Part shown: positions 1 to 58,936 of the stretch, piece after piece | Layout: every line of letters begins with the position of its first letter | Position numbering within the stretch: the stretch's first letter is position 1 | Source: a virus | Taxonomy: Duplodnaviria > Caudoviricetes | DNA length: 60,927 nucleotides | Direction: 5' to 3' (one strand) | Virus record (IMG/VR): IMGVR_UViG_3300017752_004703 | Location: 1 to 60,927 of that record | Program-made: the position numbers and the translations under genes | The notes under the pieces: model-generated | Told to the model about the DNA's origin: nothing | Database searches by the model: none | Seen by the model: only the letters and a program-made list of their open reading frames with translations

Positions 1-1701
1 CCAGAAGATCCTATTTTTGCAGGAAAAGAAATACCAAGTCATACGTACTATAATACAATTATAGAGCATAGATGTATAGAGGCGTTTGATTTCTCGAGAG
101 TAAGTGGAGCTGTTGATTTTGGAGAAGGATGTTTTAGCAGAACATGGGCTGATGGAACTATGACCTTGCCAGAAGTCAATAGCTTGGGAGAAGGTGTATT
201 TTTCGGAGCAAATAGACTTAAAGAAGTAATATTCACAAGCTCTCCAAACTTAACAACATTGGCTGATTCAACATTTTCAAATTTAGCTAATTTGTCTGGT
301 GTTGTTTTCAATACAGAACTTACATCAATAGGTAATAACGTTTTTGAAAATTGTCCATCTCTTCTTGAGTTTGATATCCAATCTACACAGATAGAAAGCT
401 TAGGTGATGCAGTGTTTAAGGACTGCGTTAATTTGACTGATATTGAATTATGCAACGGAAGTATTACTACATTAGGCGATAATGTTTTTGAAAATTGCAC
501 AAGTATTGACAATCTTTATATATGTAACTCAATCACAACAGTAGGAAGTAATTTATTTTTAAATGCAAACATAAACGTATTAGATTACGATGTTAATACT
601 ACCGTTTTAGATCCATTCTTATTTAACGGGGCTACTATAGGCGATTTATCCTTGCCGACAACAACCATAGTAGTTAAAGAAGGTGTATTCCAAAATGCAA
701 TATTTGGACCAGATCCTTTTGATGGGTTGCCTAATGGAGTGGTTACCTTTGAAGATAGTGTGTTTAATCAAACACCTTTAAGTGGTATATTTATTCCTAC
801 ATCACTTAGCGGTTTAGCGAACACTACATTCAAAGACTCACCCAACCTTTCTGGTTTAGACTTTTCTTCGTGTAATTCACTTACTGGAATTGGAAATGAA
901 AACTTCATGAATTGTGATTCTATCACTGGTATTGTTTTACCTAATTCTTTACAGGTTATTGGTGACGGCAACTTCAAAGATAGTAATTTAATAGAAGAAA
1001 TAATTTTCCCATCATCTTTGGAATACATGGGAGACGAAAACTTCAGAAACTCTTCTGGTTTGGCTTATGTAGATTTATCAAATACGAATTTGATAGAAAT
1101 GGGAGATAGAAACTTCATAGAAGATACAAATTTAAAAACTATATTTGCTCTTAATTTGCCAGATAGTTTACAAATAATTGGAGATGAAAACTTTAAAGAA
1201 ATTAATCTTAACACTTTAAAACTGCCTACTGGATTAAAGATATTAGGAGATTCTAATTTTTATGATTCTCAGGGTTCGACTCTTCTCCCTTGGGGTGAGG
1301 GAGACCCTCCTATATTTAGCCTTCCAAGTGGTATTGAGAGTATAGGAAATTCAAACTGGGAAAGATCAGACGCAATACAAAAACTTAAAATAGATGAAGG
1401 TTTTTCTGGTTCGATAGGGGATCTTAACTGGAATTTGTGTAACCAAATGAGTGAGCTTCTAATAAAAACTACAGATTCTAACATGTCCATTGGAAGTGGT
1501 AATTTCACAGACTTAAATTTATTAGCAACAATTCAAATTGATTGTCCAGCATCTTGTTGGCAAGGTTTAGATAATTTTAGAGATTCTAAATCAGACATGA
1601 TAATTTATGTTAATTCAACTTATGCGGCTGGTTATGACGACATCTGGAGTGGAGCTCAAGCAGTGCCAAATGGAGCTACAATAACATCCTACACACCCTA
1701 A
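1..1701 (+). CDS. BspA-type leucine-rich repeat (LRR_5) protein, 5'-truncated
   Basis: The frame is open from base 1 (PEDPIFAGKEIPSH...) into the listed ORF at 160. It has ~23-aa repeats of the type LxxIGxxxFxxCxxL. Confidence 0.85.
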   Translation, partial: PEDPIFAGKEIPSHTYYNTIIEHRCIEAFDFSRVSGAVDFGEGCFSRTWADGTMTLPEVNSLGEGVFFGANRLKEVIFTSSPNLTTLADSTFSNLANLSGVVFNTELTSIGNNVFENCPSLLEFDIQSTQIESLGDAVFKDCVNLTDIELCNGSITTLGDNVFENCTSIDNLYICNSITTVGSNLFLNANINVLDYDVNTTVLDPFLFNGATIGDLSLPTTTIVVKEGVFQNAIFGPDPFDGLPNGVVTFEDSVFNQTPLSGIFIPTSLSGLANTTFKDSPNLSGLDFSSCNSLTGIGNENFMNCDSITGIVLPNSLQVIGDGNFKDSNLIEEIIFPSSLEYMGDENFRNSSGLAYVDLSNTNLIEMGDRNFIEDTNLKTIFALNLPDSLQIIGDENFKEINLNTLKLPTGLKILGDSNFYDSQGSTLLPWGEGDPPIFSLPSGIESIGNSNWERSDAIQKLKIDEGFSGSIGDLNWNLCNQMSELLIKTTDSNMSIGSGNFTDLNLLATIQIDCPASCWQGLDNFRDSKSDMIIYVNSTYAAGYDDIWSGAQAVPNGATITSYTP

Positions 1702-1706
1702 TAAAA

Positions 1707-4700
1707 ATGCCAAGAAACAGAACAATATATCAATCTGAATCAGTTTTTGTCAGTAATGACTTGGATTCTACTGATGTTTGGCAACACGCTGAAGTAGTAA
1801 GAGTACAAGAAGCTAGTTATGGTTTCTCGATGAATAAAACAGATGTCAATCAATATGGAAAAAGTAGTAGAATAGATCATATAAATTTAGAACTGCCTAC
1901 TGTTAATTTTGATATGTCTTACTTATTGGGCAATGGTTACAATGAGTCCGTTTTAGGTTTTGATATTAAAGAAGGTTATCAATTTGCAAAATCTCATTTA
2001 GAAAATAATAGCGGAAGAAATTTCTATATATTAACTTCTGAAGAAGGTCTTGATTCAAAATCTTTGGAGGTCGGAGATCCTTATAATTTAATAGGTATAG
2101 GTAATGCTTTTTTGACGAACTATTCTGTAGATATGTCTGTAGGTTCTTTGGCTAAAGTTGATCTGCAATACGAATGCTCAAATATAAATTCAATTCAAGG
2201 AATCGTAGAAGGCGAAGGTTTTTGGCTTACGCAGTTAAGTGGGGATAGTGCATCTATAAATCTAGATAAAGGAATACCTCATGATAAGAGAATCAAAATT
2301 ATTGCGCCTAAAGGTGATCTAGAAAATATACCTACTGCATTAAGACCTGGCGACATAACAATAAATTTTGAAGGTTTCGATTCTGAAAATTTATCGACCA
2401 TTAGTGGTAATGGTTCTTTCCATTTACAAAGCGCTAATTTATCTATTCCATTGTCTAGATCTGAACTAAAAAGATTAGGATCTAAAGGTGCATATGCAAG
2501 GGTTCTTGATTACCCTACAAAAGCTACTTTAAGCGTTAATTCTATAGTTAGTAATATTGAAGTTGTAGATCTTGCTGAATCTGTAAGAGGTTGTATAAAC
2601 AAATCTTTAAATAATGATATATCTATATTGGCTAAAGACTGTGATAAAGAAAATGCTATTATATGGAGGCTTAAAAATCCTGATTTATTATCAGAAAATT
2701 TCTCTTCTAATATTGGACCAAACAAATCTGTTGATCTTACTTTTGAGGTCGAAATAGGTAATCCAGACGACAACTCCATAGGAATACTTTGTAGTGGAGC
2801 TTCAGATAGAGATAACGAAGAAAGAGAAGATGACAACGATTACTATCCAACCAGAGTCTACGGCTATGATTATTCTGGATCCGCTGCTTATCTGGAGCAG
2901 GGAGTCTTTAGTGGCGAAAGCAACATACTTTTAGACTGGGAAATTGGTGACGTAGTTGACCGATGGAAGTATAACCAATTGATTACACCTACTTTCAATC
3001 CTAGATGGGGAAATTTAGATTTTATAAAAAGAATTGCTCCTGGAGGATCTACTGAATATATTGGCGATCAAGCTTTCACTAATTTAAAAGCAACAGGAGA
3101 ATTATATTTAACAAAAAATCTTACTGGTATTGGAACGAGTGTTTTTGAAAACACAGATATTGATTATCTTGTAGTTGGAGACGGGCTTCCAAAACTTCCT
3201 AGTAGATCTTTTTATAAATGCGATAACTTAAAAACAGTAAATACGGCAGATTCTATAACAGAAATAGGAGATTGGTGTTTTAGAGACAATACAAACTTAA
3301 CCGAATTTTATTTTAGCACAGGTTTAAGCGGCCTTGGACCTTACGCTTTTAACAGCTGCTCTTCTTTAGAAAAAGCAAATCTTTCTGGGTGTGATTCTTT
3401 GCAAGATATAAGTGGAAATACTTTCGAAGGATGCTCTTCTCTAGAAGAAGTAAGTTTGTCGGATTCTGTATTAACATTAGGAGATAATAGTTTTAAAAGT
3501 TGCACTTCATTAACTAATTTTAAATGGAGTTCAGGATTGCAAAGTGTGGGTTACAGATCTTTTCAGGGATGCTCAAGCTTGCTAGATCCTGTTTTTTATG
3601 ATACTTTAGAAATAATTGGAGAAGAAGCTTTTTCAGCTTGTTCATCTTTTGATTCTGTTACTATACCAGGAACAGTAACAGATTTTGGCGCTAACTCATT
3701 TAGAACATGTGGAGTAAAAAGTTTAGTATTAAACGAAGGCTTGTCTGAAATCGCAGAAACAGGTTTTTATAATTGTGCATTTTTAAAGAGTATAAGCTTT
3801 CCCGAAACTTTGTCATATATAAATCGATATTGTTTCAGCTATAACTATAGATTACAAAACCTTAATATACCAGACAATGTTTCTGGAATAGGGAGTCACG
3901 CATTCTATACTTGTTACTCGGCAGCTACTTCTCAGGAGTGTTTAGACGTTGTAAATTTTGGCAGTGGTCTTAAGTTTATTGAGGATCAAGCTTTTTATGG
4001 CAACGAATCACTAAGATCAGCCGATTTGCCAGAAAATATAGAATCAATAGGAGAGCAGTGTTTTAGAAATTGTGGTTTAAGCGGCTTTGTTAATCTCCCC
4101 GATTCTTTAAATTCAATAGGAAACAACGCTTTTGATAGTAATAATTATATTGAAAGTATTAATATAGGTGCTGGATTAACGACTCTTTCCAATAACTGTT
4201 TTGAAGAATGCACAAGCCTTTCAGGTGTGTTTATACCAGATTGGTTCGAAAGTCTTAATTACGGCGTATTTTTACGTTGCTATGATATAACTACAATAAG
4301 CCTGGGTAATGGTATAGAATATATAAATGACTATGCATTTGGTGACTGTAGGTCACTGACAGGTATAGATATTCCTTCTCAAATTACTGGTATTGGAAAT
4401 AACGCTTTTCGAACTGGACTAAATATAACTAACATTGGTTTAGTAGAAGGTTTGGAATATATTGGTAATTATGCTTTTAATAATTGCCGTTCTTTGACTG
4501 GGGTTTCATTCCCAAACACTTTGAGTGGTATTGGATCCAATGCGTTTTCTTCTTGTTTTGATTTAAGTGGTCAAATAATTTATACTCCGAACCTACAATC
4601 CGTAGGTACTTCTGCTTTTGCTAGCACAGATATATATGATATAGTATTTAATGATCACCCATCCTACAATAAAATAGAAGACTCTACATTCTCTAATTGT

Positions 4701-6416
4701 AGCCTTTTAACTGGTCTTAATTTAGTACCAAATATTACAGAAATAGGAAATAGCTCGTTTGCATCTTGCTCAATTTTGAGCGGAATTAACTTTAACGAAA
4801 CTATTACATCCATTGGAACTTCAGCTTTTTCTGATTGTTCAGACTTAAGCGGGGTGAGTTTTCCTGATAGTATCGAGTCTGTAGGCACTTCAGCTTTTTA
4901 TAGTTGTTCTGATTTGAGTTTTATTGATTTTAGCCAAAATAGTAATTATGATACAATAGCATCCTCTTGTTTTCAAAATTGCATATCTTTAACTAATGTT
5001 TTATTACCAAGCAATATAACCAGATTAGACAGCAGCTGTTTTAATGCATGTAATACTTTGGAATATATAGATTTAAATGTTTCTTTGGAATATATAGGAG
5101 ACAGTGCTTTTGAGGGCTGCTCGAAACTAAACAACATAGATCTGCCGAGTAGCTTGCTTACTATAGAAGACGATGCTTTTTTGTTTTGTTATGATTTAGA
5201 ATCTATGAGTGTTTTTCCAGAAAACCTTACTTTTATAGGAGACAATGCTTTCCAGTCTTGTGATTTATCTGGGGTCGAATCAATTTTAACTATACCAGAC
5301 AGTGTAACCTATATGGGACTTGAGGCTTTTAAAGGTAATTTAAATAATTTAAGCGGTGTAGTTCTAGGTTCTGGTTTAACTAATCTTAGGGCTGGCGTTT
5401 TCGAAAGTTGCACTAATCTAAGAGAGATAAATTTAGAAAATATAACATCCATAGAAGGCAGTGCTTTCAAAAGCTGCACAAGTTTAACTGGAGCCATAAT
5501 CCCTCCGACTATGCAGTCTATGGGTGCTAATGCTTTTCAATCCACGGCTATTGAAAATATAATAATACCAGATCCAATAACAGAAACAAGCAGTAGTTTG
5601 TGTTACGGTGCTCAGTATTTAACTGGTATAATTTCAGGATTAAATTTAATTACTATAGGTAACAATTCTTTTTACGGATGTGGCGCTTTAAGTGAATTTT
5701 ATGCAGAAGACAGCTTACGAACAATTAAGACTTCTGCATTTCAAAACTGTTCGTCAATGAGTGGTTTTGATTTAAATCAAATAACAGAACTGCAAAGTTC
5801 TGCATTTAAAAACTGTGACTCTCTACCTGAATTTATAGATATTCCAGATACTGTAACCATCATGGGAGACGCTGTTTTTGAAAACTGTACTAATACTACT
5901 GGTTTTTCTTGGAGTTCTGGTTACCATATAATAGAAGAAAAATCATTTAAAGGATGTAATAATATTCAAACTTTAGAGATACAAAGCCATATAACTGAAA
6001 TACATTCAGAAGCTTTTATGAATTGTACTTCTATAAGCGGAGTTACTTTCCCAGAAGGAATGCAATTTATAGGCGGGACATTGAGAGATTACAATGCTCT
6101 AAATGGAAGTTTTAAAGGTTGTATAGGAATAAGTGGAGAAGTTATACTTCCTGCTTCACTAACAACTTTGGGTCGTTACGCTTTCTACGACAGCAACCTT
6201 ATAAGCACTTTTAAATTTTATAGTACTGATGCTCCTCTTACAAGAGTGGATGCTTTTCCTCTAAAGTTTATCAACGACCCAAGTAATAATCCAATACACG
6301 CTCCTTCTGGATCTGAAGCTAGTTATGCTGGAGAAAGTTATACTCAATCTTCTAGCTCTTTCGGAAATAAAAGACCAGTTAATTGGGATTCTTTAAATAT
6401 AATTTTTGATTTATGA
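1707..6416 (+). CDS. Tail-tube-like N-terminal domain (~365 aa) fused to a long BspA/LRR_5 solenoid
   Basis: The beta-rich N-terminal region has an internal two-fold repeat and is followed by an acidic linker (DRDNEEREDDNDYY) and roughly 45 IGxxAFxxCxxL repeats. The tail-tube assignment is inferred. Confidence 0.7.
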   Translation: MPRNRTIYQSESVFVSNDLDSTDVWQHAEVVRVQEASYGFSMNKTDVNQYGKSSRIDHINLELPTVNFDMSYLLGNGYNESVLGFDIKEGYQFAKSHLENNSGRNFYILTSEEGLDSKSLEVGDPYNLIGIGNAFLTNYSVDMSVGSLAKVDLQYECSNINSIQGIVEGEGFWLTQLSGDSASINLDKGIPHDKRIKIIAPKGDLENIPTALRPGDITINFEGFDSENLSTISGNGSFHLQSANLSIPLSRSELKRLGSKGAYARVLDYPTKATLSVNSIVSNIEVVDLAESVRGCINKSLNNDISILAKDCDKENAIIWRLKNPDLLSENFSSNIGPNKSVDLTFEVEIGNPDDNSIGILCSGASDRDNEEREDDNDYYPTRVYGYDYSGSAAYLEQGVFSGESNILLDWEIGDVVDRWKYNQLITPTFNPRWGNLDFIKRIAPGGSTEYIGDQAFTNLKATGELYLTKNLTGIGTSVFENTDIDYLVVGDGLPKLPSRSFYKCDNLKTVNTADSITEIGDWCFRDNTNLTEFYFSTGLSGLGPYAFNSCSSLEKANLSGCDSLQDISGNTFEGCSSLEEVSLSDSVLTLGDNSFKSCTSLTNFKWSSGLQSVGYRSFQGCSSLLDPVFYDTLEIIGEEAFSACSSFDSVTIPGTVTDFGANSFRTCGVKSLVLNEGLSEIAETGFYNCAFLKSISFPETLSYINRYCFSYNYRLQNLNIPDNVSGIGSHAFYTCYSAATSQECLDVVNFGSGLKFIEDQAFYGNESLRSADLPENIESIGEQCFRNCGLSGFVNLPDSLNSIGNNAFDSNNYIESINIGAGLTTLSNNCFEECTSLSGVFIPDWFESLNYGVFLRCYDITTISLGNGIEYINDYAFGDCRSLTGIDIPSQITGIGNNAFRTGLNITNIGLVEGLEYIGNYAFNNCRSLTGVSFPNTLSGIGSNAFSSCFDLSGQIIYTPNLQSVGTSAFASTDIYDIVFNDHPSYNKIEDSTFSNCSLLTGLNLVPNITEIGNSSFASCSILSGINFNETITSIGTSAFSDCSDLSGVSFPDSIESVGTSAFYSCSDLSFIDFSQNSNYDTIASSCFQNCISLTNVLLPSNITRLDSSCFNACNTLEYIDLNVSLEYIGDSAFEGCSKLNNIDLPSSLLTIEDDAFLFCYDLESMSVFPENLTFIGDNAFQSCDLSGVESILTIPDSVTYMGLEAFKGNLNNLSGVVLGSGLTNLRAGVFESCTNLREINLENITSIEGSAFKSCTSLTGAIIPPTMQSMGANAFQSTAIENIIIPDPITETSSSLCYGAQYLTGIISGLNLITIGNNSFYGCGALSEFYAEDSLRTIKTSAFQNCSSMSGFDLNQITELQSSAFKNCDSLPEFIDIPDTVTIMGDAVFENCTNTTGFSWSSGYHIIEEKSFKGCNNIQTLEIQSHITEIHSEAFMNCTSISGVTFPEGMQFIGGTLRDYNALNGSFKGCIGISGEVILPASLTTLGRYAFYDSNLISTFKFYSTDAPLTRVDAFPLKFINDPSNNPIHAPSGSEASYAGESYTQSSSSFGNKRPVNWDSLNIIFDL

Positions 6417-24786: not shown

Positions 24787-25418
24787 TGAATAACGACTTA
24801 TTAAGATATAACAGAAATCAAAAGTATATAATTTTTGATACAGAGACCGAGGGTTTGAATTTGGTTAAATCGAAACCTTGGCAAGCGGCTTGGATTGTGG
24901 CTGAGGGTAATAAAATCATCAAGAAGTATGACAAACTTATATATTGGGATGATTTAAACGTATCAAAAGACGCTGCAAGGATAACAGGTTTTAGCCAATC
25001 TCACTATGAGAAGAATGCTGAAGACCCCAAGAAGGTTTGGGATGAGTTTTCAAAGTACTTATATGACGACTCTTATAAAATTGTTGGTCAAAACTTATTA
25101 GGTTTTGATATCTACATGATAGATGTTTGGAGAAAACTTATTGGTGAGCCTTTAATGCAGGATTATATAAACAGAATTATTGATACAAAAGCCATAGCTA
25201 CAGCTATTGCTAAAGAGTCTCCTGTACCTAATCATGATTTTATCTATTGGCAGTATAGATGGCTCAACTATAGAGAAAGAGGTTTAAAAACATCCCAATT
25301 AACACTTTTAAAAAAATATGAGATTGACTTTGATGCTAAAAGATTGCATGATGCTCTTTACGATATCGAAATGAACTTCGAAATATTCCACAAACAACTT
25401 TACGATATAGAACTATGA
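24786..25418 (+). CDS. DEDDh 3'-5' exonuclease (DnaQ/epsilon-like)
   Basis: ExoI FDTETEG, ExoII GQNLLGFD and ExoIII HDALYD. Confidence 0.9.
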   Translation: MNNDLLRYNRNQKYIIFDTETEGLNLVKSKPWQAAWIVAEGNKIIKKYDKLIYWDDLNVSKDAARITGFSQSHYEKNAEDPKKVWDEFSKYLYDDSYKIVGQNLLGFDIYMIDVWRKLIGEPLMQDYINRIIDTKAIATAIAKESPVPNHDFIYWQYRWLNYRERGLKTSQLTLLKKYEIDFDAKRLHDALYDIEMNFEIFHKQLYDIEL

Positions 25419-36588: not shown

Positions 36589-36752
36589 ATAAACAAGCAT
36601 CAAAAAGAATAAGAAAAATCATTAATCCACAGGACGAGGTGACAAGAAGGGTATACAGAAGAGCTAAAAAGCAATATGTTAAGGTCCCTAAAGCTCTTAG
36701 GGAGGACTTCTTGAAATCTTTAGACTCTATGATTAATGGTGATTCTAATTAG
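36585..36752 (+). CDS. Small basic hypothetical protein (55 aa), not in ORF track
   Basis: ATGA overlap with the GNAT stop; MNKQASKRIRKIINPQDEVTRRVYRRAKKQYVKVPKALREDFLKSLDSMINGDSN*. Confidence 0.6.
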   Translation: MNKQASKRIRKIINPQDEVTRRVYRRAKKQYVKVPKALREDFLKSLDSMINGDSN

Positions 36753-38416
36753 ATCGATGTTTTGTAGTATTTGAAAATGTCAAATTCATTTCCAGATATA
36801 TTACACAAAAGCATTATACCACTGTCCAAGTAAGACAGCTTAAAATCTACAGAGTCATCTTGAGATTTGTTATCTATTATTTTAAACAGAGGGTAACCAA
36901 AGTTTCCAGGTTCTTGTGAGGTTCCTGTCGGTACTATAGTTATCTTTCTAGATTCTACAGAATAAAAATCCTCCTCTTTTCTAAATTCAAAAGTATAATC
37001 AAAAGTTGTATTTGCCCATTTTCCATTTTTGTCTAATATCATTGAGTTATACTCTGGACTGTCATCAGAATATGATTCATATATAGGCTTTACTATTTCA
37101 GGGTTATCCTTATCAACAAAGATTTTATCTAGTACTCCAGATTCATAGTATAATATTGAGTCTATTTTTTGTTCTCTAAATTTAATACTTGCAGAAGACT
37201 CAGAGCTGTCAATTTTAATTTCTGTAGAAGCAATTATGTTATCTGCAGGTTCAATATATTTATCCAAAGATAAAGGTCCAATCATAAATGGCTCACCTTC
37301 GCCTATAAAAGAATAAGGTATAAATTTTAACCAAGTATTTTGGTTGTATTCCATGCCAAAGTCTTCAGTGTAATTTTCGAGCAATGTTTTTTCTTGGACT
37401 TGATTTATTCTTTTTACAAAGTTAAAACCTTCTAAATCTAAACTGTCTCCTTTGTATTCGTACATGTCGACATGAGAATACTGTGTGTATTCTGGGCTAT
37501 TTAGTAATTCGACTTGTAACTGTATTTCTTGTTCTGGTATTTGCCCAGTAAAATAAGGCAAATTAATTATGCCACTGGTTGTTTTAACTGGTTCTTTTAT
37601 ATGGTCTAGTATATAACCGCTACCCATTTCGTCTGAGTATACTCCAAAAGGGTTACTGAAGTCTTTAGATCCAGATGATATTAAAAACGATCCATTGGGG
37701 CTGTAGTCCATTACAACCAATGACCAAGAGCCTTGATTAGAGAAACCTGAGAATTCTGAAGAAAAATTATCGTAGCTTACGTATCCAGATAATTCATTAG
37801 GGTTAAATTCCCATGTTAAAAACCCTTCCCAAGGATAATAAGATCCTTCGTGCAACACTTCTCCAGATGTAATGTATTTAGATACAGTTTGAAAACCATC
37901 GGATTTATACATTTTTCCAGTATATAAATATCCAGATGGCTGAAGATTGCCACTAAAAAACACACCCAAAGATTCATCGTAGTCTGACGATCCTTTACTG
38001 TCTACTGCTTTTATTCCGCTTATTTCTAAGTTATTGGCATACAGAGATATATATCCAGAGGGTGTATAAACACTTGTTTCATCTATAACTGTCCCTATAA
38101 CTCCGAAATCTTTTTTATAGCTTCCAAAGATTGATTCATTATTTTTTTCAGTAAATAACAGCTTATTGTTTTGACCGCTTTGGAAATTTTTTTCTACTAT
38201 GTTCCCATTCTCATCTGTTATATCAAATACTACTCCGTCACAGAAACGGCTTTGTTGTATATTTTCTTTGTTAAACAAAATATCCCCATTTCTGTCCCTT
38301 ATATTAAAGGTTACTTCAACATCTCTTTTTTTATGAATTCCACTTCCAGATCCTAAAGTAGTTAAATCTTGAGAGTCGTAGGTGAAATTTGATTCAAATT
38401 CTTTTATGTCTTTCAT
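36749..38416 (-). CDS. Putative tail/structural protein downstream of gpJ
   Basis: Operon position; acidic, beta-rich and SG-rich sequence. Confidence 0.6.
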   Translation of the reverse strand: MKDIKEFESNFTYDSQDLTTLGSGSGIHKKRDVEVTFNIRDRNGDILFNKENIQQSRFCDGVVFDITDENGNIVEKNFQSGQNNKLLFTEKNNESIFGSYKKDFGVIGTVIDETSVYTPSGYISLYANNLEISGIKAVDSKGSSDYDESLGVFFSGNLQPSGYLYTGKMYKSDGFQTVSKYITSGEVLHEGSYYPWEGFLTWEFNPNELSGYVSYDNFSSEFSGFSNQGSWSLVVMDYSPNGSFLISSGSKDFSNPFGVYSDEMGSGYILDHIKEPVKTTSGIINLPYFTGQIPEQEIQLQVELLNSPEYTQYSHVDMYEYKGDSLDLEGFNFVKRINQVQEKTLLENYTEDFGMEYNQNTWLKFIPYSFIGEGEPFMIGPLSLDKYIEPADNIIASTEIKIDSSESSASIKFREQKIDSILYYESGVLDKIFVDKDNPEIVKPIYESYSDDSPEYNSMILDKNGKWANTTFDYTFEFRKEEDFYSVESRKITIVPTGTSQEPGNFGYPLFKIIDNKSQDDSVDFKLSYLDSGIMLLCNISGNEFDIFKYYKTSI

Positions 38417-38420
38417 TAAA

Positions 38421-41400
38421 TTAATTTATTGTTATTCCATCTAAAACAGCACCATCTATTACGGTGTCTTCTTCAAGAGAGTCTATATTTAAGTTTGTAT
38501 AATATATAGGAGAATCTAAATAATGGCTATAAAAATCATCGTTGTCATACTCAGCCCCAAGCGCTTGTAGGGACAACCTATACTGTCCATTAGCGGTTAT
38601 TTCTTCAAAATCGAAAGTGCTATCTTGTGTATCGTAATATGAATATTCTAGTTCGAACGCAGGTCTAATACCTAATCTATATCCAGTTGCGTTCTTAACA
38701 TTTCTCCAGTCACCTTCTATAGTTATAGTTGTGTTGCCTCCAAGAACTTGTATATTTCTAGCTGTCCATGATACCTTGTCTGGCATAGGTAATGTAAAAT
38801 ATTTAGATTCGTCTACTTCATAATCGCTTGCGTAAGGATCAACATAAACGCTTTGATCTGCATAGTTTGTTTCTTCTATTTCTCTGTACTTGCCGCTTTT
38901 ATACTGAGAGGCTATGACTTGATATGAATGAGAATCCTCTTCCTCAATAGAAGATACTTTGTAAACCCTGTCTACTGTATTTTTTCTTTTAAATCTGTAT
39001 ATAGACCCTTTAGGAATCAATGGTAAAAATATTGAGCTTTCGTCGTTTTGGTCTGCATACAACGTGTAGCCGATACTGTAGTCATCAGCGGCTTGTCCAG
39101 AAGCTATCTTTATATCTTTTATTTGTCTTGTCTCATTTATTTTTATATCAGCATCTATTATTGCCCCTTTTGTTTCCCTGAGGTCAAACCATGAATCGCT
39201 TAAATTGAAGGACTCTGTATCTCTCCCGTCTCCACCTGTTTTAAACTTGTACCAAGGATAATTAAGTTCACTATTGTCAAAATCGGCGAAGTCTTCCACC
39301 CATTCTCCATCTGTTTCGCCGCTGGTGGCTGATATGTATTTATCATAAGTGGGATTATGCGTAAAAGCTTGCCCTGTAGAGAATACCCAACCAGTGTATT
39401 GAGTAGAATACCAAAGGAAGTGTTTTGTTGATCCTAGTTCCCCTGTGTAAAAAGCGTATTCATCTTTTAATACTTTTGTTGATAAGCCTTGAAGCTTTTG
39501 TTCTCTAAATCCTTCTTTATAAGAATCAAATGCATATTCACCTGTCAACCCTTTATTTTTAAAGTTTGAATACTCATTATTTATTTTAAAGAAGTCGTGT
39601 CTTGATCTATCTTGCAATAATATTTCTTCGATATCTTCTATCTGCTGTGAACCAGTTGGGATATAAACAGTCAAATAACCTTCAAAGTTTTCCTCATCGT
39701 AAACATCAGATATTCTTATTGTTTTATCTTCGTTGTTTACCTCTAAAACTCTACCGAAATTGCTTGTTAGCGTTTTAAGTTCATCTTCAATGATAACTAA
39801 ATCTCCAGGTCTTACAAGTATTCCTTCTAGTCCTGTCGAAAACGAAACGTTTTCGTTTTCTTGGGTGGCTTGGTAAAGAAGATGACTTCCATACCTCCTA
39901 GCTTGCGCTCTGTTGGTAACACCAAAAGCATCTATTTTTGTTTTTATTATACCTCTTTCTCTTATATCTTTTTCGTTTTCCAGATATTCAAATTTGGGTT
40001 CGTAGTCATCGTCGGCGTCGATATAAGAAACTTCTACGGCGTTATATTGTTCGTCCTTTAAAAGAGAAGAGTAATTAAAAACGCCTTCTACGACATTACT
40101 ATTGTTAAAAACCATCACTGGTTCTTTTATTCTGTCGTCAGAGAAAGAAACTACTGAATCAGCAAAATAAAACAATCCTTTAAAGTTGCTTGCTATAAGG
40201 TTTAAAGCGTCAAATACTTTTATCTCTCTTTCGAATAAGGTATTACAAGAGTATCTTGGTTGCCTTCCTCCTTTAGGAGAATCAGCCTGAACTATGTTGT
40301 CAGAGACTCCTTCAAAATATCCGTTAACATCGACAGCATCACAGAATCTTGCGATTTTATATAGTTGCCATTTATTTACTTGGTTTTCTTCTATTAAATC
40401 GCCTAAACCTATTTGGTAGTCAGTTAAAAGATCGTAGAGTATCCATGCTGGATTGTCTGACCAACCCAATTTAAAGGTCCCGTCCCAATCCCCATCGTAA
40501 ACTCTTGTTTCCTCTGATTTGCCAGCTGCTTCTAGATCAGTAGCGTTAAGCCAATACCTTTTATCTGTTCCTCCTGGATTTAAAGGGTTGTAATTAGAAG
40601 GAATTTTGATCTTTTTCATTCTAACATCGTATGACCTTGATGGTATTTCTCCGAAAGTTCTCGAATCTACTTTCGTTCCCACTAGAGCAGAGAAAGGATA
40701 ATTCAAGGATCTGGGTACAATTTCAGTAACTTTGCCGAGGTTTACTGTTTTTGATATAAGTGTAGAGTTAGACTCTGTAGATAGTTTGGTTACTCTTACA
40801 TATCTCTCTTTGTAAATTTGTTCAAATCCATATTCTCCTTTACTTACTTCAGGGTCTGGTAATTCAAATGGTTGAACAACAGATCCGCTATACTCAGATT
40901 CAGGACCTGTACTATCTTTGTATAATTGCGTTACATAGCTCAATTGCGATGAGTTATTCATGTTGTCTGGATTACCTATGTCTACTGCCGCTCCTCCTTC
41001 AATCAAAGATATAATTCTAAAAAAACGATCATACACTTTTATAAATTGACCTTTCGTAGTGGAGTTTTGTGGAGATATATAACCAACTTCCACTCTAAAG
41101 TTAACTATAGTAGGAAGCTTAGAGCCTACAACTTTACTTTTGTCCCAGTTTTTTTCGTCAACATGTAAAGTATCCCATAGACCTTCTACATTTAAAGTTA
41201 TATAACAGGATTCAACGTTTGGATTGTAAATAACGTGGGTTATTGGCTGCGCTTTTTCGTTGTAATCTTGTTTGAAACTATTCCATTCTGAAAAATCGAA
41301 ACTTCTAAATCCAAGGTGTTGGGGTGTGGAAGGACGTTTATCACTACTTCCTTCTTCGACGGATACAAGCCAATCTTCTTTTCCAGTCTCTAAATTAATT

Positions 41401-43268
41401 GCCATTTTGGGTATGGTATTTTTAGCTGGAATTCCTTTTCTCCCGTCTTTGTTACTTGTCGAGTTCTGTTCGGAAACGATCAAGGATCTTTGTTTAGGGT
41501 CACCATTTTTATTTAAATAAATGCCGTCTGCCCTAAAATTCTGTAATGCTTGCATCCTTCTATTAAGGTCTACATTAAAAGGTCCTAGCAATCTTTTTTG
41601 TATTTCTCTATCTAAATATATATTTTTGAAAAAACTAAGTGGCTGCTGTTGCCTAGGCCCTGATCCGTCTCGGTATTCTGCTAGTACATTTAAAAAATTG
41701 TATTTTGTTTCCCCTCCTGCCCTTATTCTAGGCATTTTAAAAATACCAAAACTTTTTACTTTCTTATAAAATTCAATCTCAGAATTTAACATACCAAAAC
41801 ATTTTAGTGTGCCTTCTGCTGAGACCTTAGTATTTGAATTTACTGATGACTTAGATATTTCTCCGACTTTGCTTTTAACTTCTACGCTTATAAAATTTAA
41901 ATAAAAACCTTTAATTTGCCCGTTCCATTTGCCTGTATTTGGATCTAAAACAGGAATTAACATATTTATAGAATTCTTATCTCTTGCGTACCAATTATAA
42001 TTTCCGCTATAATCTTCTAGTGTAAAATCAAGTTCGTGTTTTAAAGGTGTCCCATCTAATTCGTTTGTGAATTCATATTCATTATCGGCAGTGTAACCAT
42101 TTAATACATAGCTGGGTTTATATCTAAAAGCGACGAACGGCTTAACTAGATCATCTTGTTTTGTTGCGCTTGAGTTTTGTATTTCAAAGTCAGTAGCTCT
42201 ACCGAATTTACTTTTTACTTGAGTAATAAAGTTGTAAGAGTTGAAAGTATTACCAGAAAGCTCGTAACCATAAGCTTCTAGTTTTACTTTTAAATATTCC
42301 CACTCATATTTATTTGCATTTCTATTGTTAAATATGTCGACAAGGTCGTTCAATCCTTTCCTTGATACAGAGTTGGCTGTTTTTTGAACTCCTGATTCTT
42401 TATAATCTTGTACGCAAGTAGTTTCTGCATAAGAGTAAGGGTTACAAACTCCTTGGGTATACAGGCTCTTGTGATTTCTAAAGACTTCGTTTTCGACATC
42501 GGCCCATGAAGGTGAATATTCAAATATTAAATCGTCACCTACTATACTTTGGTTTATTACGCTTCTGTATACTGTGCTATCGTAATAAAATTTTGAACCT
42601 TGGTATAAAGGCCACTCATATTGACCTCCTTCAGATGCTGGCTTGGTCCACCTTTGGTCGCCGTATTTTTTAACTCCAAGGCTTTTGGTTTTTTCTTTTT
42701 TGCCTTTGTGGTAGTTTACCAAATTAGCTCTTACCCAATAAGACATTGGTTTAGAATTAGAAAAAGATAATCCAGACTTAGATAATATATTTCCTTTAAA
42801 AACGTATGTTTCATATTCTAAAATATTATTATACTTTCCGTATCTGTTTTTGACGACACTCATCGTTGTTTGAAACGCTTTTTGTCTTCTTGGGTTTTCA
42901 AAGTTTAAAGATGTTACTACTGCTATTTCTCTTAATTTACTTATAGCATCCGTTTCTGAATTATGCCCCTCGAAAGCGGCGTCTCCTATTTGTATTTTTT
43001 CTGTTGAAACTGATTGCTCTATTGGTACTCCATTCAAATAAATACCTTGTAGTAACTGACTATTGTCTAGCCTAGAACCAAATCTATTGCAAAGCCCGTC
43101 TATGGGCCCTTGGCACAATAAATCTACAGCTTCTGCGAACTGATAAGAAGCTCCAAGCTTATAAGATCCAACTCTTGGGGGTTGTAATACTGGAGGTTTA
43201 GGTGGGGGCGGTTTTGATCCTCCTTTTTTTGACCCAGCATAAGTAAATTTTTTCTTTAGATGTTTCAT
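38421..43268 (-). CDS. Tail tip / host-specificity protein (lambda gpJ-like)
   Basis: DLLCQGPIDGL, YPFSALVG, WDGTFKLGWSDNPAWILYDLL, FCDA..PRYSCN, AFGVT..QARRYG, RPGDLV and a C-terminal FN3-like domain. Confidence 0.92.
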   Translation of the reverse strand: MKHLKKKFTYAGSKKGGSKPPPPKPPVLQPPRVGSYKLGASYQFAEAVDLLCQGPIDGLCNRFGSRLDNSQLLQGIYLNGVPIEQSVSTEKIQIGDAAFEGHNSETDAISKLREIAVVTSLNFENPRRQKAFQTTMSVVKNRYGKYNNILEYETYVFKGNILSKSGLSFSNSKPMSYWVRANLVNYHKGKKEKTKSLGVKKYGDQRWTKPASEGGQYEWPLYQGSKFYYDSTVYRSVINQSIVGDDLIFEYSPSWADVENEVFRNHKSLYTQGVCNPYSYAETTCVQDYKESGVQKTANSVSRKGLNDLVDIFNNRNANKYEWEYLKVKLEAYGYELSGNTFNSYNFITQVKSKFGRATDFEIQNSSATKQDDLVKPFVAFRYKPSYVLNGYTADNEYEFTNELDGTPLKHELDFTLEDYSGNYNWYARDKNSINMLIPVLDPNTGKWNGQIKGFYLNFISVEVKSKVGEISKSSVNSNTKVSAEGTLKCFGMLNSEIEFYKKVKSFGIFKMPRIRAGGETKYNFLNVLAEYRDGSGPRQQQPLSFFKNIYLDREIQKRLLGPFNVDLNRRMQALQNFRADGIYLNKNGDPKQRSLIVSEQNSTSNKDGRKGIPAKNTIPKMAINLETGKEDWLVSVEEGSSDKRPSTPQHLGFRSFDFSEWNSFKQDYNEKAQPITHVIYNPNVESCYITLNVEGLWDTLHVDEKNWDKSKVVGSKLPTIVNFRVEVGYISPQNSTTKGQFIKVYDRFFRIISLIEGGAAVDIGNPDNMNNSSQLSYVTQLYKDSTGPESEYSGSVVQPFELPDPEVSKGEYGFEQIYKERYVRVTKLSTESNSTLISKTVNLGKVTEIVPRSLNYPFSALVGTKVDSRTFGEIPSRSYDVRMKKIKIPSNYNPLNPGGTDKRYWLNATDLEAAGKSEETRVYDGDWDGTFKLGWSDNPAWILYDLLTDYQIGLGDLIEENQVNKWQLYKIARFCDAVDVNGYFEGVSDNIVQADSPKGGRQPRYSCNTLFEREIKVFDALNLIASNFKGLFYFADSVVSFSDDRIKEPVMVFNNSNVVEGVFNYSSLLKDEQYNAVEVSYIDADDDYEPKFEYLENEKDIRERGIIKTKIDAFGVTNRAQARRYGSHLLYQATQENENVSFSTGLEGILVRPGDLVIIEDELKTLTSNFGRVLEVNNEDKTIRISDVYDEENFEGYLTVYIPTGSQQIEDIEEILLQDRSRHDFFKINNEYSNFKNKGLTGEYAFDSYKEGFREQKLQGLSTKVLKDEYAFYTGELGSTKHFLWYSTQYTGWVFSTGQAFTHNPTYDKYISATSGETDGEWVEDFADFDNSELNYPWYKFKTGGDGRDTESFNLSDSWFDLRETKGAIIDADIKINETRQIKDIKIASGQAADDYSIGYTLYADQNDESSIFLPLIPKGSIYRFKRKNTVDRVYKVSSIEEEDSHSYQVIASQYKSGKYREIEETNYADQSVYVDPYASDYEVDESKYFTLPMPDKVSWTARNIQVLGGNTTITIEGDWRNVKNATGYRLGIRPAFELEYSYYDTQDSTFDFEEITANGQYRLSLQALGAEYDNDDFYSHYLDSPIYYTNLNIDSLEEDTVIDGAVLDGITIN

Positions 43269-43271
43269 TTT

Positions 43272-43928
43272 TTATTGAGGCAATGATACTTCGGATGGGG
43301 ATTCAGATTTAGTATTGTCGTTTCTATATGCGTTACTTTCCATTGCTTGTAGAGGTAATATATTCTGAGGGTATGTCTTAACAGTCCCCTGAACAACTTT
43401 AGAACCTACTCTCATTCTTCCGTAACCAATTGGTACAACAACCCCTTGCGCTGCCGTGTTTGCTCTGTTGGCAAAAGCAAAAGACTTCCCTAATGCTCCT
43501 ACTGTTGATTCTGCGGCTACTGCATCTGGAAATTCTTGTTTAGGAGCTAATAACATAGACAAACCAGCGGAAAGGAAAATACCTCCGAGAACACTTAGTG
43601 CTGTACCGACAGCTCCTGCCACAGCAGCTCCAGCTATCAATCCAGCTACACCTACTACAGCAGCGACAACACCTTGCCCACAAATTATAGGAACAAAGTC
43701 TACCCTTTTAGGTTTTTGATTTTCTATAGAACTAGCGTCTTTAATTGTTTTTCCGTCAATGATCAAGCAGTATTCTAAACCAAGCTCAGATAGAGCATTT
43801 AACTTCTTTAAAAACCCAGACCTATTAGCTTCTATAGCATCAACAAGTGTGTTTATGTTGTCTATATTTAATTTCAATTCTTCACCAAAATCTTCAGCTA
43901 AGATACCGTGTAATTTTATACTAGTCAT
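43272..43928 (-). CDS. Tail assembly protein (lambda gpI-like, ubiquitin-like N-terminus)
   Basis: IKLHGILAEDFG, VDFVPIICGQG, Gly/Ala hydrophobic segment and QGVVVPIGYGRMRVGS. Confidence 0.88.
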   Translation of the reverse strand: MTSIKLHGILAEDFGEELKLNIDNINTLVDAIEANRSGFLKKLNALSELGLEYCLIIDGKTIKDASSIENQKPKRVDFVPIICGQGVVAAVVGVAGLIAGAAVAGAVGTALSVLGGIFLSAGLSMLLAPKQEFPDAVAAESTVGALGKSFAFANRANTAAQGVVVPIGYGRMRVGSKVVQGTVKTYPQNILPLQAMESNAYRNDNTKSESPSEVSLPQ

Positions 43929-44346
43929 TTATCAAAATATTGTTTTTTATTAATTCGTCTTCAAATTTCTCTAACAGTTCTAATTCTGTTTCTGGGTTGT
44001 TTGGTCTGTATATGTAATATTTTTTTGTGTTTAAGGAATAAACAGTAAAAGGTACTCGACTATTCTCAGACATCAAAATATCAAAATCAGATGGCTCCTC
44101 GTCTCCTATAACATGACTATGAAAAATAGTAATTACTTTGTAAGCATCTTTAAATACTAAATATTGCAACGGATCCAAAACAAAATTATGTCTAGGGTCA
44201 GTAGCTATATTCTTTCCTTCTTGAAAAACATATTCTCCGTCACTAAACCCTACCAATCCACATACTTCATTGACAATGGAAAGCTCGCAAAAACTTGCGA
44301 TCTCTTCTAAACATTCTTTTATTGTTTTAAATTTTTTAGTTTTCAT
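43921..44346 (-). CDS. JAB/MPN metalloprotease (gpK-like, no NlpC/P60 domain)
   Basis: EVCGLV and FHSHVIGDEEPSDFD (E...HSH...S..D). Confidence 0.88.
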   Translation of the reverse strand: MKTKKFKTIKECLEEIASFCELSIVNEVCGLVGFSDGEYVFQEGKNIATDPRHNFVLDPLQYLVFKDAYKVITIFHSHVIGDEEPSDFDILMSENSRVPFTVYSLNTKKYYIYRPNNPETELELLEKFEDELIKNNILIND

Positions 44347-44359
44347 TTTTATTTATTAA

Positions 44360-46695
44360 CTAAGAGCTAAATCTATAGCCATCTGTACCAGGAAAACCTC
44401 CAAAAGGTAGCGTTCCGAATTCACCTTCTATAAGTGTTTCTTTCCCTACGTTTGGTGCTCTACCTACTCTATACTGCAAATCGACAAGATCGTAACCATC
44501 TTTTGTAAAAGGGCCTGAGGAATCTCCTCCTCCAAAAGCTGTATTTCGGTCTTTGTAAATTAAATGATTGCCATTGTGATGATCTGTAACATAAAAATCG
44601 CCATCTTGTTCGAATGGTTCTTGCCAAAAATGATAACAATCAGCTAAAACTTCATTGCCTACTCGCCCTTTTTCTTCTTCAACTATGTCCTCCCATCTTT
44701 TAACTATTTCTACTGCGTAAGTAGCTCCTTCCAGAACCGTGTTTTGTTGTGTTTTTAGTGAATTAAGTTGACCGTTAGTCAAGGCTTTTCCCCAGATACC
44801 TACTGAAGCAACTTGCATAGGCTGTTGAGACCACTTTTCTTCGTATGTTGTTGGCTCATCAGTAAATTTACTTATGTCTGTTATATTTAATCCAGAAATA
44901 TCATTGACTGGCATATTTGTAGTTCCCCCAAAGAATACAAATCGATCAGTATCATCTGTAAGCATACGGTCAAGAAAGACTGAGCTTTGAGCTTCTATAA
45001 AAACAGATTCTTTTTCCTCGTCATTGGGGTATGTAACACAAGACCAATTAGCTCTGAATCTCGCTTGACTTTGGGTAGTTCCAGGCGGAGGATATTTATC
45101 TTTCCTCAAGCTAAGTACAAAGTTCTTGCTGTTTTTAACATCGTAACCACCTTCAGGAAGTATAGGTAATCCGTTCCTATTTTTAACCCGAAAATAATCA
45201 TCGTCTGCATTAATTCCAACGAGTTTTATTCTTTGATTTGTTTCTGGGTATACTCCAGAAACTTTAATCGCAGAAAAGGAGTTAAATTCCATATAAGGTT
45301 CTTTTTGTAGACCGAGAACAAATTGACTGTGCGATGTTCCGTAGCCCACAGTTTCTTTTGATGTTTTAAATATAATTTGATCTACATCCTCTTGTCTATC
45401 TTCTTCTTCTACGCCCTGAGGATAAAAATCGTAACGCTGTGGACGGTCTAGAGATTCTATATCCACTAAAAGCGTGAACTCTTTAAAAAGGTCGACAAGA
45501 GCAAATACGGGCGGGGTATTTGAATAGGACCCCCAACCATCTTGTTTATATCTAAAACGGCTTTTGGTTATTTCCGCTACGTCGTTATAATTATTTTTCA
45601 GTTTAAGATATCCTTGATGAACCCCTTCTTCATAACCCTGTAAGTTCCACATTTGCTGTTCGTAGAAATCAGTTTCTAAAAAAACCTTTTGTATTGATGT
45701 TTTTGCAAACCTTGATTTGCATTGGTTTAATTTTTTACCACATCCATCCTTATCCCAATATTCAGGGTTGTCTCTTGGGTCTCTGCCAGGTTTTGCATAT
45801 TTTCTGCATACAAAATAAGTCAAAGAAGATCTAAATACATTCGGATTTCTTACGTCTTGTATTCTGATTCTATCGTTTACAATATAAACTACATGCCCTG
45901 GGTTGTAATCTTTTTGTGAATCATAAAGATCGTTTGCATTAGAAAAAATAAATTCTTCTCCGAAATTTTCCATATTAAGAAAGCTCCTGTCTCGGGACGA
46001 GGCTTTTCTTCTGTTGGAAGCCCAGGGTTGTTTAAGCTCTGTGTTGGATACATCTTCAGTTCCTTTAAAAACATCCTTACCAAAAGTGAAAGGCTTTCCG
46101 TCCTCCCTTTGTACTGGTGCTCCTCTGTAATCGCAACCAGAACCCCTATAGTTCCAAGGGCAATACTTAGCTAGAATCTTTCTATTGGTAAGGTCTCTTG
46201 ATTCTATATCTAACGGTGTCGTTAGCTCCAATTCTACAAACACTTTATTCTCTTGCCTTTTCTGAGATACAAAGTATAAATCGACAGAAATTTCAGCATT
46301 TGAGTCTGATTCTCCCCAAGGGTTTCCGTTTCAAAGTTTTGTTCGTCAAGAAACTTTAAAAAAGTTCTTCGCCTTTCGACTTTGGCGTTTCTGAAATCTT
46401 CGTTATTAGCTAATAAGTTTGTTAGCAATAAGTCTTTATTAGAAATTCTTATTATAGGCCTATTAGGTTTCCCGCTAGAGTTTATTGAAAATCCTTCTAC
46501 CTCCATTGGTATAGGACTATACAACTCTCCCTGCCAGTAAACTCCACCTCCGAATACAGATCCGTTATGTACGTTTAAATAACTCTTTGGTTTGGTCACC
46601 GTGTTTGGATATATTCTGTAAAAATCTATCACAGCTGTAGGCTCCATATCGAAGACAGCTTTCGTTATTTTATCCCTAGACCTTTCTAATGCCAT
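44360..46695 (-). CDS. Minor tail protein (lambda gpL-like) interrupted by a 1-nt frameshift near 46330, with a large C-terminal insertion
   Basis: The N-part reads WQGELYSPIPMEVEGF..RRTFLKFLDEQNF. The shifted frame continues NGNPWGESD..ELTTPLD..CPWNYRGSGC..CGKKLNQCKSRF..PFGGFPG. Confidence 0.85.
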
Positions 46696-56608: not shown

Positions 56609-56953
56609 ATGAGTTGTGACAGCAATAAAACCATAACAGAAATCAAAAGAGGCTCTACTTTCGAGCAGACAATTACTTGCTTAGATGAGTCAGATGTAGC
56701 CGTGAACCTTAGTGGTTGGACAGTGGAAAGTGATTTAAAGCAGTCTGCGAGTGAAGATACTTTGCTTTCATTCGCTATCGAAAGCGGTGGTTTTGCTAGT
56801 GGAATTGTTGGAATTTCTGCAACTCCAGCACAAACACTAACCCTTCCTGCTGATTACAACCTTCAATATGATATAAAATTCACTGAGCCTAGCAGCTCGG
56901 TTTATTATACTGAAACATTGTATTTAAAAACCAGCAGACACATCACAGACTAA
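56609..56953 (+). CDS. Putative structural adaptor protein (BppU N-terminal-like)
   Basis: IKRGSTF..VNLSGWT..QTLTL..YDI pattern. Confidence 0.6.
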   Translation: MSCDSNKTITEIKRGSTFEQTITCLDESDVAVNLSGWTVESDLKQSASEDTLLSFAIESGGFASGIVGISATPAQTLTLPADYNLQYDIKFTEPSSSVYYTETLYLKTSRHITD

Positions 56954-58416: not shown

Positions 58417-58417
58417 A

Positions 58418-58936
58418 ATGAATTTATATACAATATATGACTCCAATAATCAACAAGCTATATCCAAGGATCGACCTTGGCCTACTGCTGACGGAGTTAC
58501 TATACCAGATATGGAAGAGGGTATCTATATACTACTTCAGGTCACAGAAGCTAAACCTTTGCATGATCCTGCTACGCAAAAACTTAAAAGACTCCCTGTT
58601 AGTTATGATATAGCAAACAAAACAGCGACAATAAAAAGCTGGGAGGTTGTTGAATTAACGCAAGAAGAGATTGACGCTAGGCTTCCTGCTCATGTTGACA
58701 TTGGAGGTATTAAGTATGATGTTTCAGAGCAAGCTCAGAATGCCTTTACTCGCATGACTAGTCTGATAGATCATGCAGGGATGGATTTAACGGACGAGGT
58801 TTCTGTTAAAGATATATTTGGTGTTAGTCATGCAATCACCGTCGAGGCGTATAATTCAGACATGATTCAATATGGTCTTTATTGCTATTCCTTGTTTTTT
58901 GTAGAGCCAGAGCCAGTTGATCCAGACATGATTTAA
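58418..58936 (+). CDS. Putative fibre-associated/chaperone protein
   Basis: PLHDPATQKL..WEVVELTQEEI pattern; located between fibre genes. Confidence 0.6.
   Translation: MNLYTIYDSNNQQAISKDRPWPTADGVTIPDMEEGIYILLQVTEAKPLHDPATQKLKRLPVSYDIANKTATIKSWEVVELTQEEIDARLPAHVDIGGIKYDVSEQAQNAFTRMTSLIDHAGMDLTDEVSVKDIFGVSHAITVEAYNSDMIQYGLYCYSLFFVEPEPVDPDMI

Follow-up and report, generated by a model that had tools for sequence, protein, structure and literature searches.

The window analysed here is the whole 60,927-nucleotide stretch of IMG/VR virus record IMGVR_UViG_3300017752_004703 (positions 1 to 60,927; Duplodnaviria, Caudoviricetes). It carries on its plus strand a gene, at 1707–6416, that joins a predicted duplicated tail-tube domain to a very long solenoid of BspA-type leucine-rich repeats (LRRs). 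Tail-tube proteins are usually viewed as passive conduit subunits, bearing at most a small immunoglobulin (Ig)-like or FN3 knob. The N-terminal domain of this protein (N-domain) adopts in the model the fold of the T5 tube protein and is homologous to compact marine tube proteins, related phages keep both compact and fused copies in a shared gene order, and a conserved anchor is combined with an arm that evolves fast and is swapped between lineages. On balance, we favour a reading in which the protein builds a dedicated tube ring near the tail tip, displaying LRR adhesin arms.

Layout of the fusion gene and its repeat arm

The gene is a single open reading frame (ORF) with an ATG start, encoding 1,569 amino acids (aa). 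It is divided as follows:

1707..6416, plus strand: tube-domain/LRR fusion gene, 1,569 aa, stop codon included
1707..2321, plus strand: predicted tube subdomain 1 (aa 1–205), with an N-terminal arm, a long loop (42–64) and a hairpin (125–166); single-domain tube proteins align here
2322..2810, plus strand: predicted tube subdomain 2 (aa 206–368), from the alignments of Hcp, T4 and contractile injection system (CIS) tube proteins and an hhalign register shared with subdomain 1
2811..3047, plus strand: acidic linker (aa ~366–385) and ~60-aa neck ahead of the first LRR (aa 369–447), assigned from the sequence and from the end of the compact homologues at about aa 375
3048..6212, plus strand: BspA-type LRR solenoid, at least 43 repeats of ~23 aa (aa 448–1502), from LRR_5 and the own-repeat model
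6213..6416, plus strand: non-repeat C-terminal tail (aa 1503–1569) and stop codon; no repeat was found past aa 1502

Pfam LRR_5 (PF13306) recognizes the arm in 10 stretches from about aa 440, with a score of 688.4 bits where the gathering cutoff is 27.7. With a hidden Markov model (HMM) trained on 17 repeats of the protein itself, 43 units of ~23 aa were detected in the interval aa 448–1502, and three gaps may hold two or three more, in keeping with the roughly 45 BspA repeats of the original prediction, whose acidic linker is likewise present at about aa 366–385. In the 23-aa unit a phenylalanine is invariant and the cysteine and leucine positions are nearly so. A neck similar to the one preceding the repeats is found in the orthologue of the related contig G002, and the C-terminal tail is 77–82% identical among close orthologues. 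A programmed frameshift was considered as the source of the long form in the window and was rejected, the frame being continuous through the single 1,569-aa ORF. A terminator scan 3′ of the gene found none on the plus strand.

Predicted fold of the N-terminal domain

An AlphaFold2 model of aa 1–375 was built on an alignment with 36 homologues (alignment A1), with a predicted local distance difference test score (pLDDT) of 76, a predicted template modelling score of 0.78 and 29 residues at pLDDT below 50. The original prediction had claimed a duplicated fold in the first ~365 aa and had proposed a structural comparison with the pb6, gpV and Hcp folds; that comparison yielded a match of the pb6 type. 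The top Foldseek match in the PDB was the T5 tail tube (9iny_A, E = 3.6e-11), followed by DT57C, T5 tip chains, SH-Ab15497 and P74-26 (E range 3.6e-11 to 1.7e-7). In VIA-align the highest Z scores were those of P74-26 (8ed0_A, 18.9), T5 (9iny_A, 18.5), SH-Ab15497 (8xan_A, 18.2) and 7qg9_A (18.2), with 5ngj_B (17.1) and 9ioz_A (16.3) further down. Fused-duplicated tube proteins cover residues 7–368 of the model at Z 16–19; next below come a Haloferax virus tail chain at Z 11.2 and then single-domain proteins at Z 8–10. All matches at Z ≥ 16 are either tube proteins or 293–298-aa chains of the T5 and DT57C tip complexes that have the same duplicated tube fold. Tail tube and major tail protein are also among the names of the top structural matches in BFVD.

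Single-domain tube proteins divide between the two parts of the model. Those of SPP1 (6yeg_A, Z 9.9), lambda (V) and 80alpha align to residues 8..166–206, and the Hcp, T4 and CIS tube proteins to residues ~205..370 at Z 8.5–9.7. Because these two groups match separate halves, both halves of the modelled N-domain are tube domains. The internal duplication is clear by structure and marginal by sequence: hhalign of the N half (aa 1–205) against the C half (206–375) of the family alignment gave E/P 0.023 over 109 columns (29–157 versus 236–348), in the same register as the repeated motifs at aa 32/239 and 133/324 on which the duplication had first been proposed.

The resemblance to tube proteins of the pb6 and P74-26 type is at the level of the predicted fold only, with 8–12% identity to solved tube proteins in the structural alignments. 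Pfam and PHROGs returned nothing at E ≤ 0.1 for aa 1–398, the family profile searched against PDB sequences reached no solved tube protein at E ≤ 10, and tblastn of the N-domain against 50,697 records of cultured phages gave nothing at E ≤ 1e-3. A complex prediction for two N-domain copies on alignment A1 returned a score of 0.00 (mark 0.42) and gave no answer either way. Positions 187–256 of the family profile show weak but consistent PDB matches to the PDZ domain of PDZ-LIM proteins (E 0.005–0.02), probably by chance.

A family of compact marine tube proteins

Judged by its sequence, the N-domain belongs only to its own uncharacterised marine family. It is 42–53% identical to the 36 homologues of alignment A1, which share 76 invariant columns, all retained by the query. 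The best-conserved parts are the N-terminal arm (mean 0.89) and the loops 42–64 and 248–270 (0.87 and 0.88), against 0.68 overall. A word-seeded search with aa 1–400 retrieved 1,013 proteins of 30–861 aa at E ≤ 1e-3, the best 120 of which are mostly complete marine metagenome genes of 367–396 aa with 42–54% identity; compact proteins of 374 aa match the N-domain down to E 1e-115. The same search returned 24 proteins of 862–2,746 aa, including the query. By the precomputed Pfam column, LRR_5 is present in 21 of these 24; some have other accessions, and two have no domain.

A profile search of 1.84 billion cluster representatives (50% identity) gave 1,399 matches at E ≤ 1e-3 and 499 at E ≤ 1e-30. 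The 150 best representatives listed were re-scored locally: 90 are compact, 24 have a C-terminal extension of at least 80 aa, 28 an internal insertion of at least 80 aa, 3 have both and 5 are fragments. The internal insertions, of 80–400 aa, thus occur in 31 of the 150 (28 alone and 3 together with a C-terminal extension, among proteins P0192–P0287), and their sites recur after profile positions ~16–22, ~126–135, ~170–197 and ~218–226. The tube domain therefore tolerates decoration at loops too. A single compact copy is present in each of two more distant relatives, G004 (121 kb) and G005 (97 kb). This fits the compact form being the major tube protein.

Paralogues and gene order in related phages

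The family profile was run against three related IMG/VR contigs, and gene order was read in one of them, G001 (98.5 kb). All three contain two tandem compact genes (373–386 aa), an orthologue of the fusion gene and a giant gene with a divergent tube N-terminus, which matches the tube profile at E values from 1.9e-34 to 3.3e-39 (1.9e-34 in G001, where it comprises the first ~300 aa). The G001 orthologue is 94% identical to the query in the N-domain. The order on one strand of G001 is:

1: tape-measure protein (TMP), 3,351 aa (PhageMin_Tail)
2: 281-aa protein, directly after the TMP
3: gpM–LRR fusion, 615 aa (Phage_min_tail and LRR_5, 8 LRR units)
4: giant tube–LRR protein, 4,393 aa in a single frame, LRR units at aa 418–4,277
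5: orthologue of the fusion gene

The stretch from the TMP to the gpM–LRR gene corresponds to L007:2201–14988, and the 3,351-aa TMP implies a very long tail. Family-profile matches in G002 and G003 follow the same order as in G001.

The window begins within this cluster, with the following feature:

1..1701, plus strand: C-terminal 566 aa of a giant tube–LRR paralogue, its 5′ end cut by the record end (LRR_5; match to the G001 giant)

This ORF and the final 566 aa of the 4,393-aa giant share 82% identity, and the stop codon of the ORF lies 5 nt before the start codon of the fusion gene. The ORF had been described as a long LRR protein, and it does match LRR_5 (232 bits); the relatives' version opens with the divergent tube domain. 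The record is a 60.9-kb fragment (CheckV, 41% complete) that is cut just upstream, so that the grouping of the fusion gene with the TMP and distal-tail-protein genes is seen in relatives only (G001). A single tube-domain copy was matched in it. The search for an unfused paralogue, which the original prediction had suggested, thus found none in the record and two tandem compact copies in each of the three related contigs.

Regarding the 281-aa protein, a model based on 25 homologues (pLDDT 72) shows a duplicated tube fold, the fifth of the set, whose best Foldseek matches, ranking above pb6, are 293–298-aa chains of the T5 and DT57C tip entries (7qg9_G, E = 9.4e-9). Chain 7qg9_G we take to be p140, from its length and the component list of the entry. 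The 281-aa protein is p140-like by its model; its family profile found nothing meaningful among PDB sequences (best E 0.9).

In G001 the compact pair is on the opposite strand at a distance of about 30 kb, in a neighbourhood with weak portal and capsid matches. PHROGs gave no usable names for the neighbours of these unfused copies, and an ESM Atlas look-up of the 325-aa and 264-aa proteins upstream of a relative's TMP returned unnamed viral clusters only. Over a wider sample, a compact tandem pair is found in 15 of 26 loci: in 14 it combines a b-type (382–395 aa) with an a-type copy (373–378 aa), and in L034 two divergent copies of 370 and 442 aa.

A conserved anchor and a fast-evolving arm

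Among four close orthologues, identity is 92–95% in the N-domain, 73–83% in the LRR region and 69–80% in the last 400 aa of that region. Against the L003 orthologue (84% identical), the ratio of nonsynonymous to synonymous substitution rates (dN/dS) is 0.09 in the N-domain, 0.31–0.40 in the thirds of the LRR region and 0.31–0.51 in the regions other than the N-domain. The anchor is therefore under strong purifying selection and the arm evolves about four times faster. Because dN/dS ranges from 0.09 to 0.51 by region, the fusion gene is real, selected as coding sequence over its whole length. Within the repeats, substitutions were counted per position in the 32 ungapped units of the 43: framework positions 2, 3, 6, 9, 14, 17, 20 and 22 change in 0–11% of comparisons, and positions 8, 10–12, 15–16 and 18–19 in 28–62%. 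An opposite-strand ORF of 108 aa (2510–2836) was rejected as a gene, since it lies inside the region with dN/dS 0.09 for the plus-strand frame.

The history of the fusions was followed in a tree built from 75 N-domains. It includes the query, the full set of 36 proteins of at least 480 aa among P0002–P0144, every third compact protein of at least 340 aa (34 rows, the other compact proteins and those below 340 aa being left out), the two compact copies of G001 and the N-domains of two giants, which served as the outgroup. Fused forms occupy at least four separate places. One is the query clade, whose 16 rows are all fused (support 100); two more are clades of 5 and 13 rows, the larger lying within the compact type-a proteins, and the fourth is P0069, placed next to a compact protein. 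The tube domain of the giant is far more divergent, with a root branch of 2.28. P0023 and P0024 are on very long branches and their positions are unreliable.

The arm is also exchanged at a syntenic position. Locus L012 encodes a 1,089-aa tube fusion with Laminin_G_3 and FG-GAP_2 instead of LRRs. Before it (L012:3–12003) lie genes for an LRR protein, for a gpM without fusion partner (311 aa), for a divergent tube copy that is likewise unfused (367 aa) and for a 963-aa arm protein with an LRR stub and FG-GAP, so that the 367-aa and 963-aa proteins represent an anchor and an arm encoded separately. In G002 the orthologue (L004:9989–14466) consists of two genes with an ATGA overlap, one of 528 aa (tube domain and short LRR stub) and one of 964 aa (LRR). 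Since the short form, of 496–528 aa, occurs in five distinct proteins (P0025–P0029), the split of anchor and arm into two genes is probably real. Arms that are fused, split and swapped on a constant anchor are the usual pattern of host-recognition modules.

Proposed role of the fusion protein

In the reading that we favour, aa 1–368 would assemble into a dedicated ring within the tail-tube stack, most likely at its distal end, beside the ring of the p140-like protein and that of gpM, the distal tail protein. With two tube domains per chain, three chains would make up a pseudo-hexameric ring, as in T5 and P74-26, and the outward-facing C-terminus would give three LRR solenoid arms per ring. Assuming a rise of about 0.5 nm per repeat, estimated from the usual geometry of LRRs, each arm would be roughly 20–25 nm long. 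The arms would act as adhesins, equivalent to side fibres, that make the first contact with the host surface, and the upstream paralogue of ~4,400 aa would have the same role with much longer arms. A dedicated ring at the tip is preferred because the fused genes sit with the TMP, p140-like and gpM genes and because the giant's domain is very divergent.

The N-domain is likely to be still an assembly-competent tube subunit, because it keeps the N-terminal arm, the loops and all 76 invariant residues, and the presumed pb6 counterparts of arm and loops are needed for tube formation. In pb6 (PMC8718954), the N-terminus and two β2–β3 loops are the inter-ring contacts, and their deletion abolishes tube formation; from the model we infer that the long loops of the family correspond to these β2–β3 loops.

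Several points weigh against a dedicated ring at the tip. The tube assignment has no sequence link to solved tubes and, because no sequence-level match to any of them was found, depends on a predicted fold of middling confidence. Unfused paralogues are seen in relatives and not in this record. The p140-like slot by the TMP gene is already taken by the 281-aa protein, and the analogy with p140 is thus not one-to-one. Conservation of the N-terminal arm and loops equals that in the unfused copies, which fits co-assembly anywhere along the tube equally well. Finally, the lineage is uncultured, and virion content, stoichiometry and position in the tail are inferred.

A credible though less probable possibility is that the fusion co-assembles in sub-stoichiometric amounts with compact tube proteins along the whole tail, giving it a bristled surface. 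The arrangement would resemble SPP1 gp17.1* or lactococcal TpeX, extensions that add weak multivalent adhesion. This tail would be about 500 nm long, an estimate from the relative's 3,351-aa TMP at ~0.15 nm per residue. Besides the equal conservation of the arm and both long loops, the clade of 13 fused forms that nests inside the unfused type-a clade speaks for it, and so does precedent. Mixed tubes of SPP1 gp17.1 and gp17.1* at 3:1 are reported in PMC8718954, and a major tail protein (MTP) extended by carbohydrate-binding modules (CBMs) in phages of the 936 group in PMC6669499. However, the fusion gene lies with the TMP, p140-like and gpM genes, and the compact pair about 30 kb off on the other strand (G001). 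Moreover, a starred branch sets the query clade apart from the unfused clades, with which it shares only ~50% identity, the divergence of the giant's domain (root branch 2.28) makes it an unlikely partner of the compact form in one ring, and the long form arises here from separate genes and not by frameshift.

It is improbable that the protein is not part of the virion, its tube-like domain having been recruited elsewhere, or that its arms are directed at particles, algae, mucus or other surfaces outside the host. Nothing direct speaks for either; BspA-type LRRs are generic protein or glycan binders, and phage Ig-like decorations have been proposed as weak carbohydrate binders (PMC8718954). 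A role outside the virion sits badly with the place of the gene in the tail cluster, with the strong purifying selection on the assembly domain and with the lineage-wide modularity of anchor and arm.

We regard as very unlikely a hub- or Tal-like protein, in which the tube domains would form a pseudo-hexameric adaptor ring of the baseplate hub and the LRRs a central or tip fibre. The gene does lie downstream of that for gpM, a frequent place for hub genes, and the hub of T5, pb3, opens with tube-like domains that form the last pseudo-hexameric ring (PMC10038345). Yet all matches at Z ≥ 16 are tube or T5/DT57C tip-complex chains; no hub protein appears among the 50 entries listed in the VIA-align output, which leaves families outside those entries uncovered. 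In addition, the domain is ~50% identical to compact tube proteins, and the window has a complete gpJ homologue together with gpL, gpK and gpI. That the fusion is itself the major tube protein, with three LRR arms on every ring, is barely credible despite its full tube domain with all family-invariant residues, given that relatives keep two compact tandem copies (a tandem pair in 15 of 26 loci), that single-copy relatives have the compact form only, and that about 375 copies of a 1,569-aa protein, by estimate, would be an extreme cost.

Comparison with known tail proteins

Like T5 pb6 (5NGJ, 7QG9_A, 9INY) and the tube proteins of P74-26 (8ED0) and SH-Ab15497 (8XAN), the modelled protein has two tube domains per chain. 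An outward C-terminal appendage starts where the tube fold ends, as in pb6, whose appendage is described in PMC8718954 as an Ig-like domain. Unlike that ~90-aa domain, the appendage here is a solenoid of ~1,200 aa; there is no detectable sequence similarity to pb6, and this type of phage has several paralogues, of which the fusion is probably not the major one.

The pb6 paralogue p140 of T5 builds a single trimeric ring, which separates the last pb6 ring from the distal tail protein. The collar with the three side fibres is held by the C-terminus of p140, and the authors read the position of its gene as a sign of a baseplate part (PMC10038345). The fusion protein likewise seems to be a diverged tube paralogue, and the relatives' fused genes lie with the TMP and distal-tail-protein genes. 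However, p140 is bare and carries its fibres through a separate collar protein, p132, whereas here the arm is covalent and 1,200 aa long. By structure and position the closer counterpart of p140 is the relatives' 281-aa protein and not the fusion gene.

Adhesion modules grafted on the C-terminus of a tube protein or on the distal tail protein are found in SPP1 gp17.1* (FN3), lactococcal 936-group TpeX and ‘evolved’ Dit. For the 936-group lactococcal phages, PMC6669499 describes such ‘evolved Dit’ proteins besides the MTP extensions, with modules that bind host cells, and the gpM–LRR fusion of the relative parallels them. Unlike the present case, gp17.1* and TpeX arise by programmed frameshift of a single MTP gene and add about 100–300 aa; the fusions of this lineage are separate paralogous genes in a continuous frame, with 1,200 to 4,000 aa of LRR. 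The 23-aa unit is that of BspA-type LRR surface proteins, but here a phage tube domain takes the place of a bacterial surface anchor. Tube proteins with decorations and ‘evolved’ distal tail proteins, carrying about 100–300 aa of Ig, FN3 or CBM, are already known; the paralogues described here are separate genes with 1,200 and ~4,000 aa of LRR. No description of an LRR-fused tube protein was found in the open-access full text and bioRxiv papers searched.

A T5-type tube gene has been multiplied, up to five-fold, in this uncultured and widespread marine phage lineage, and arms of 1,200–4,000 residues are anchored by two of the copies. Should the rings occupy the position suggested by gene order, siphophages would have a third way of fixing side fibres to the tail, in addition to the T5 collar and to attachment on tip proteins. 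It seems quite possible to us, without our counting it as probable, that dedicated tube rings in this lineage bear the side fibres as covalent extensions, and that no collar carries them. The tip would then be a stack of specialised pseudo-hexameric rings (p140-like, gpM–LRR, 1,569-aa tube–LRR and ~4,400-aa tube–LRR), each projecting LRR solenoids (the LRR region of the giant has ~3,900 residues), and the anchor a general docking module for swapped, fused or split LRR, LamG/FG-GAP and other arms. A tube-domain N-terminus followed by a variable arm offers a handle for predicting host-recognition genes in marine viromes, and the arms are a natural example of very long single-chain LRR solenoids.

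Other features of the window

Apart from the fusion gene and its truncated neighbour, the window contains a second tail cluster:

36749..46695, minus strand: lambda-type tail-tip module (gpL in two ORFs, gpK, gpI, gpJ and a 555-aa protein of unknown identity), from phrog_31, phrog_32, phrog_30, phrog_18, Phage_tail_L and Prok-JAB

The gpJ homologue matches the central tail fibre J family (phrog_31) at E = 7e-117, and by its sequence matches the module marks the phage as a siphovirus. The gpL homologue is split (44360–46695, minus strand): an ORF of 153 aa (46234–46695) matches positions 15–92 of Phage_tail_L, and a second of 627 aa with a GTG start (44360–46243) matches positions 120–171 at its residues 3–53 and continues for ~570 unmatched aa. 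The split could reflect a frameshift, either programmed or an assembly error, or be genuine.

On the plus strand, at 25415–30408, a DnaE-like DNA polymerase (phrog_405, E = 6.8e-160) adjoins an 817-aa homologue of an ATP-dependent protease (phrog_4871, E = 2.8e-190); tblastn with the polymerase found no cultured phage more than 28.4% identical among the matches listed. The stretch at 56953–60927 (plus strand) encodes a 487-aa protein combining collagen repeats with a cement-like domain, and also a Laminin_G_3 ‘virion structural protein’ cut off by the record end, both candidate fibre or decoration genes. An AGGA, GGAG or GAGG core within −20..−5 precedes 3 of the 40 plus-strand gene starts, and GC content is 31–42%. 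The few Shine–Dalgarno cores and the low GC presumably hint at a host, possibly one of the Flavobacteriia, that like members of the Bacteroidota does not rely on Shine–Dalgarno pairing.

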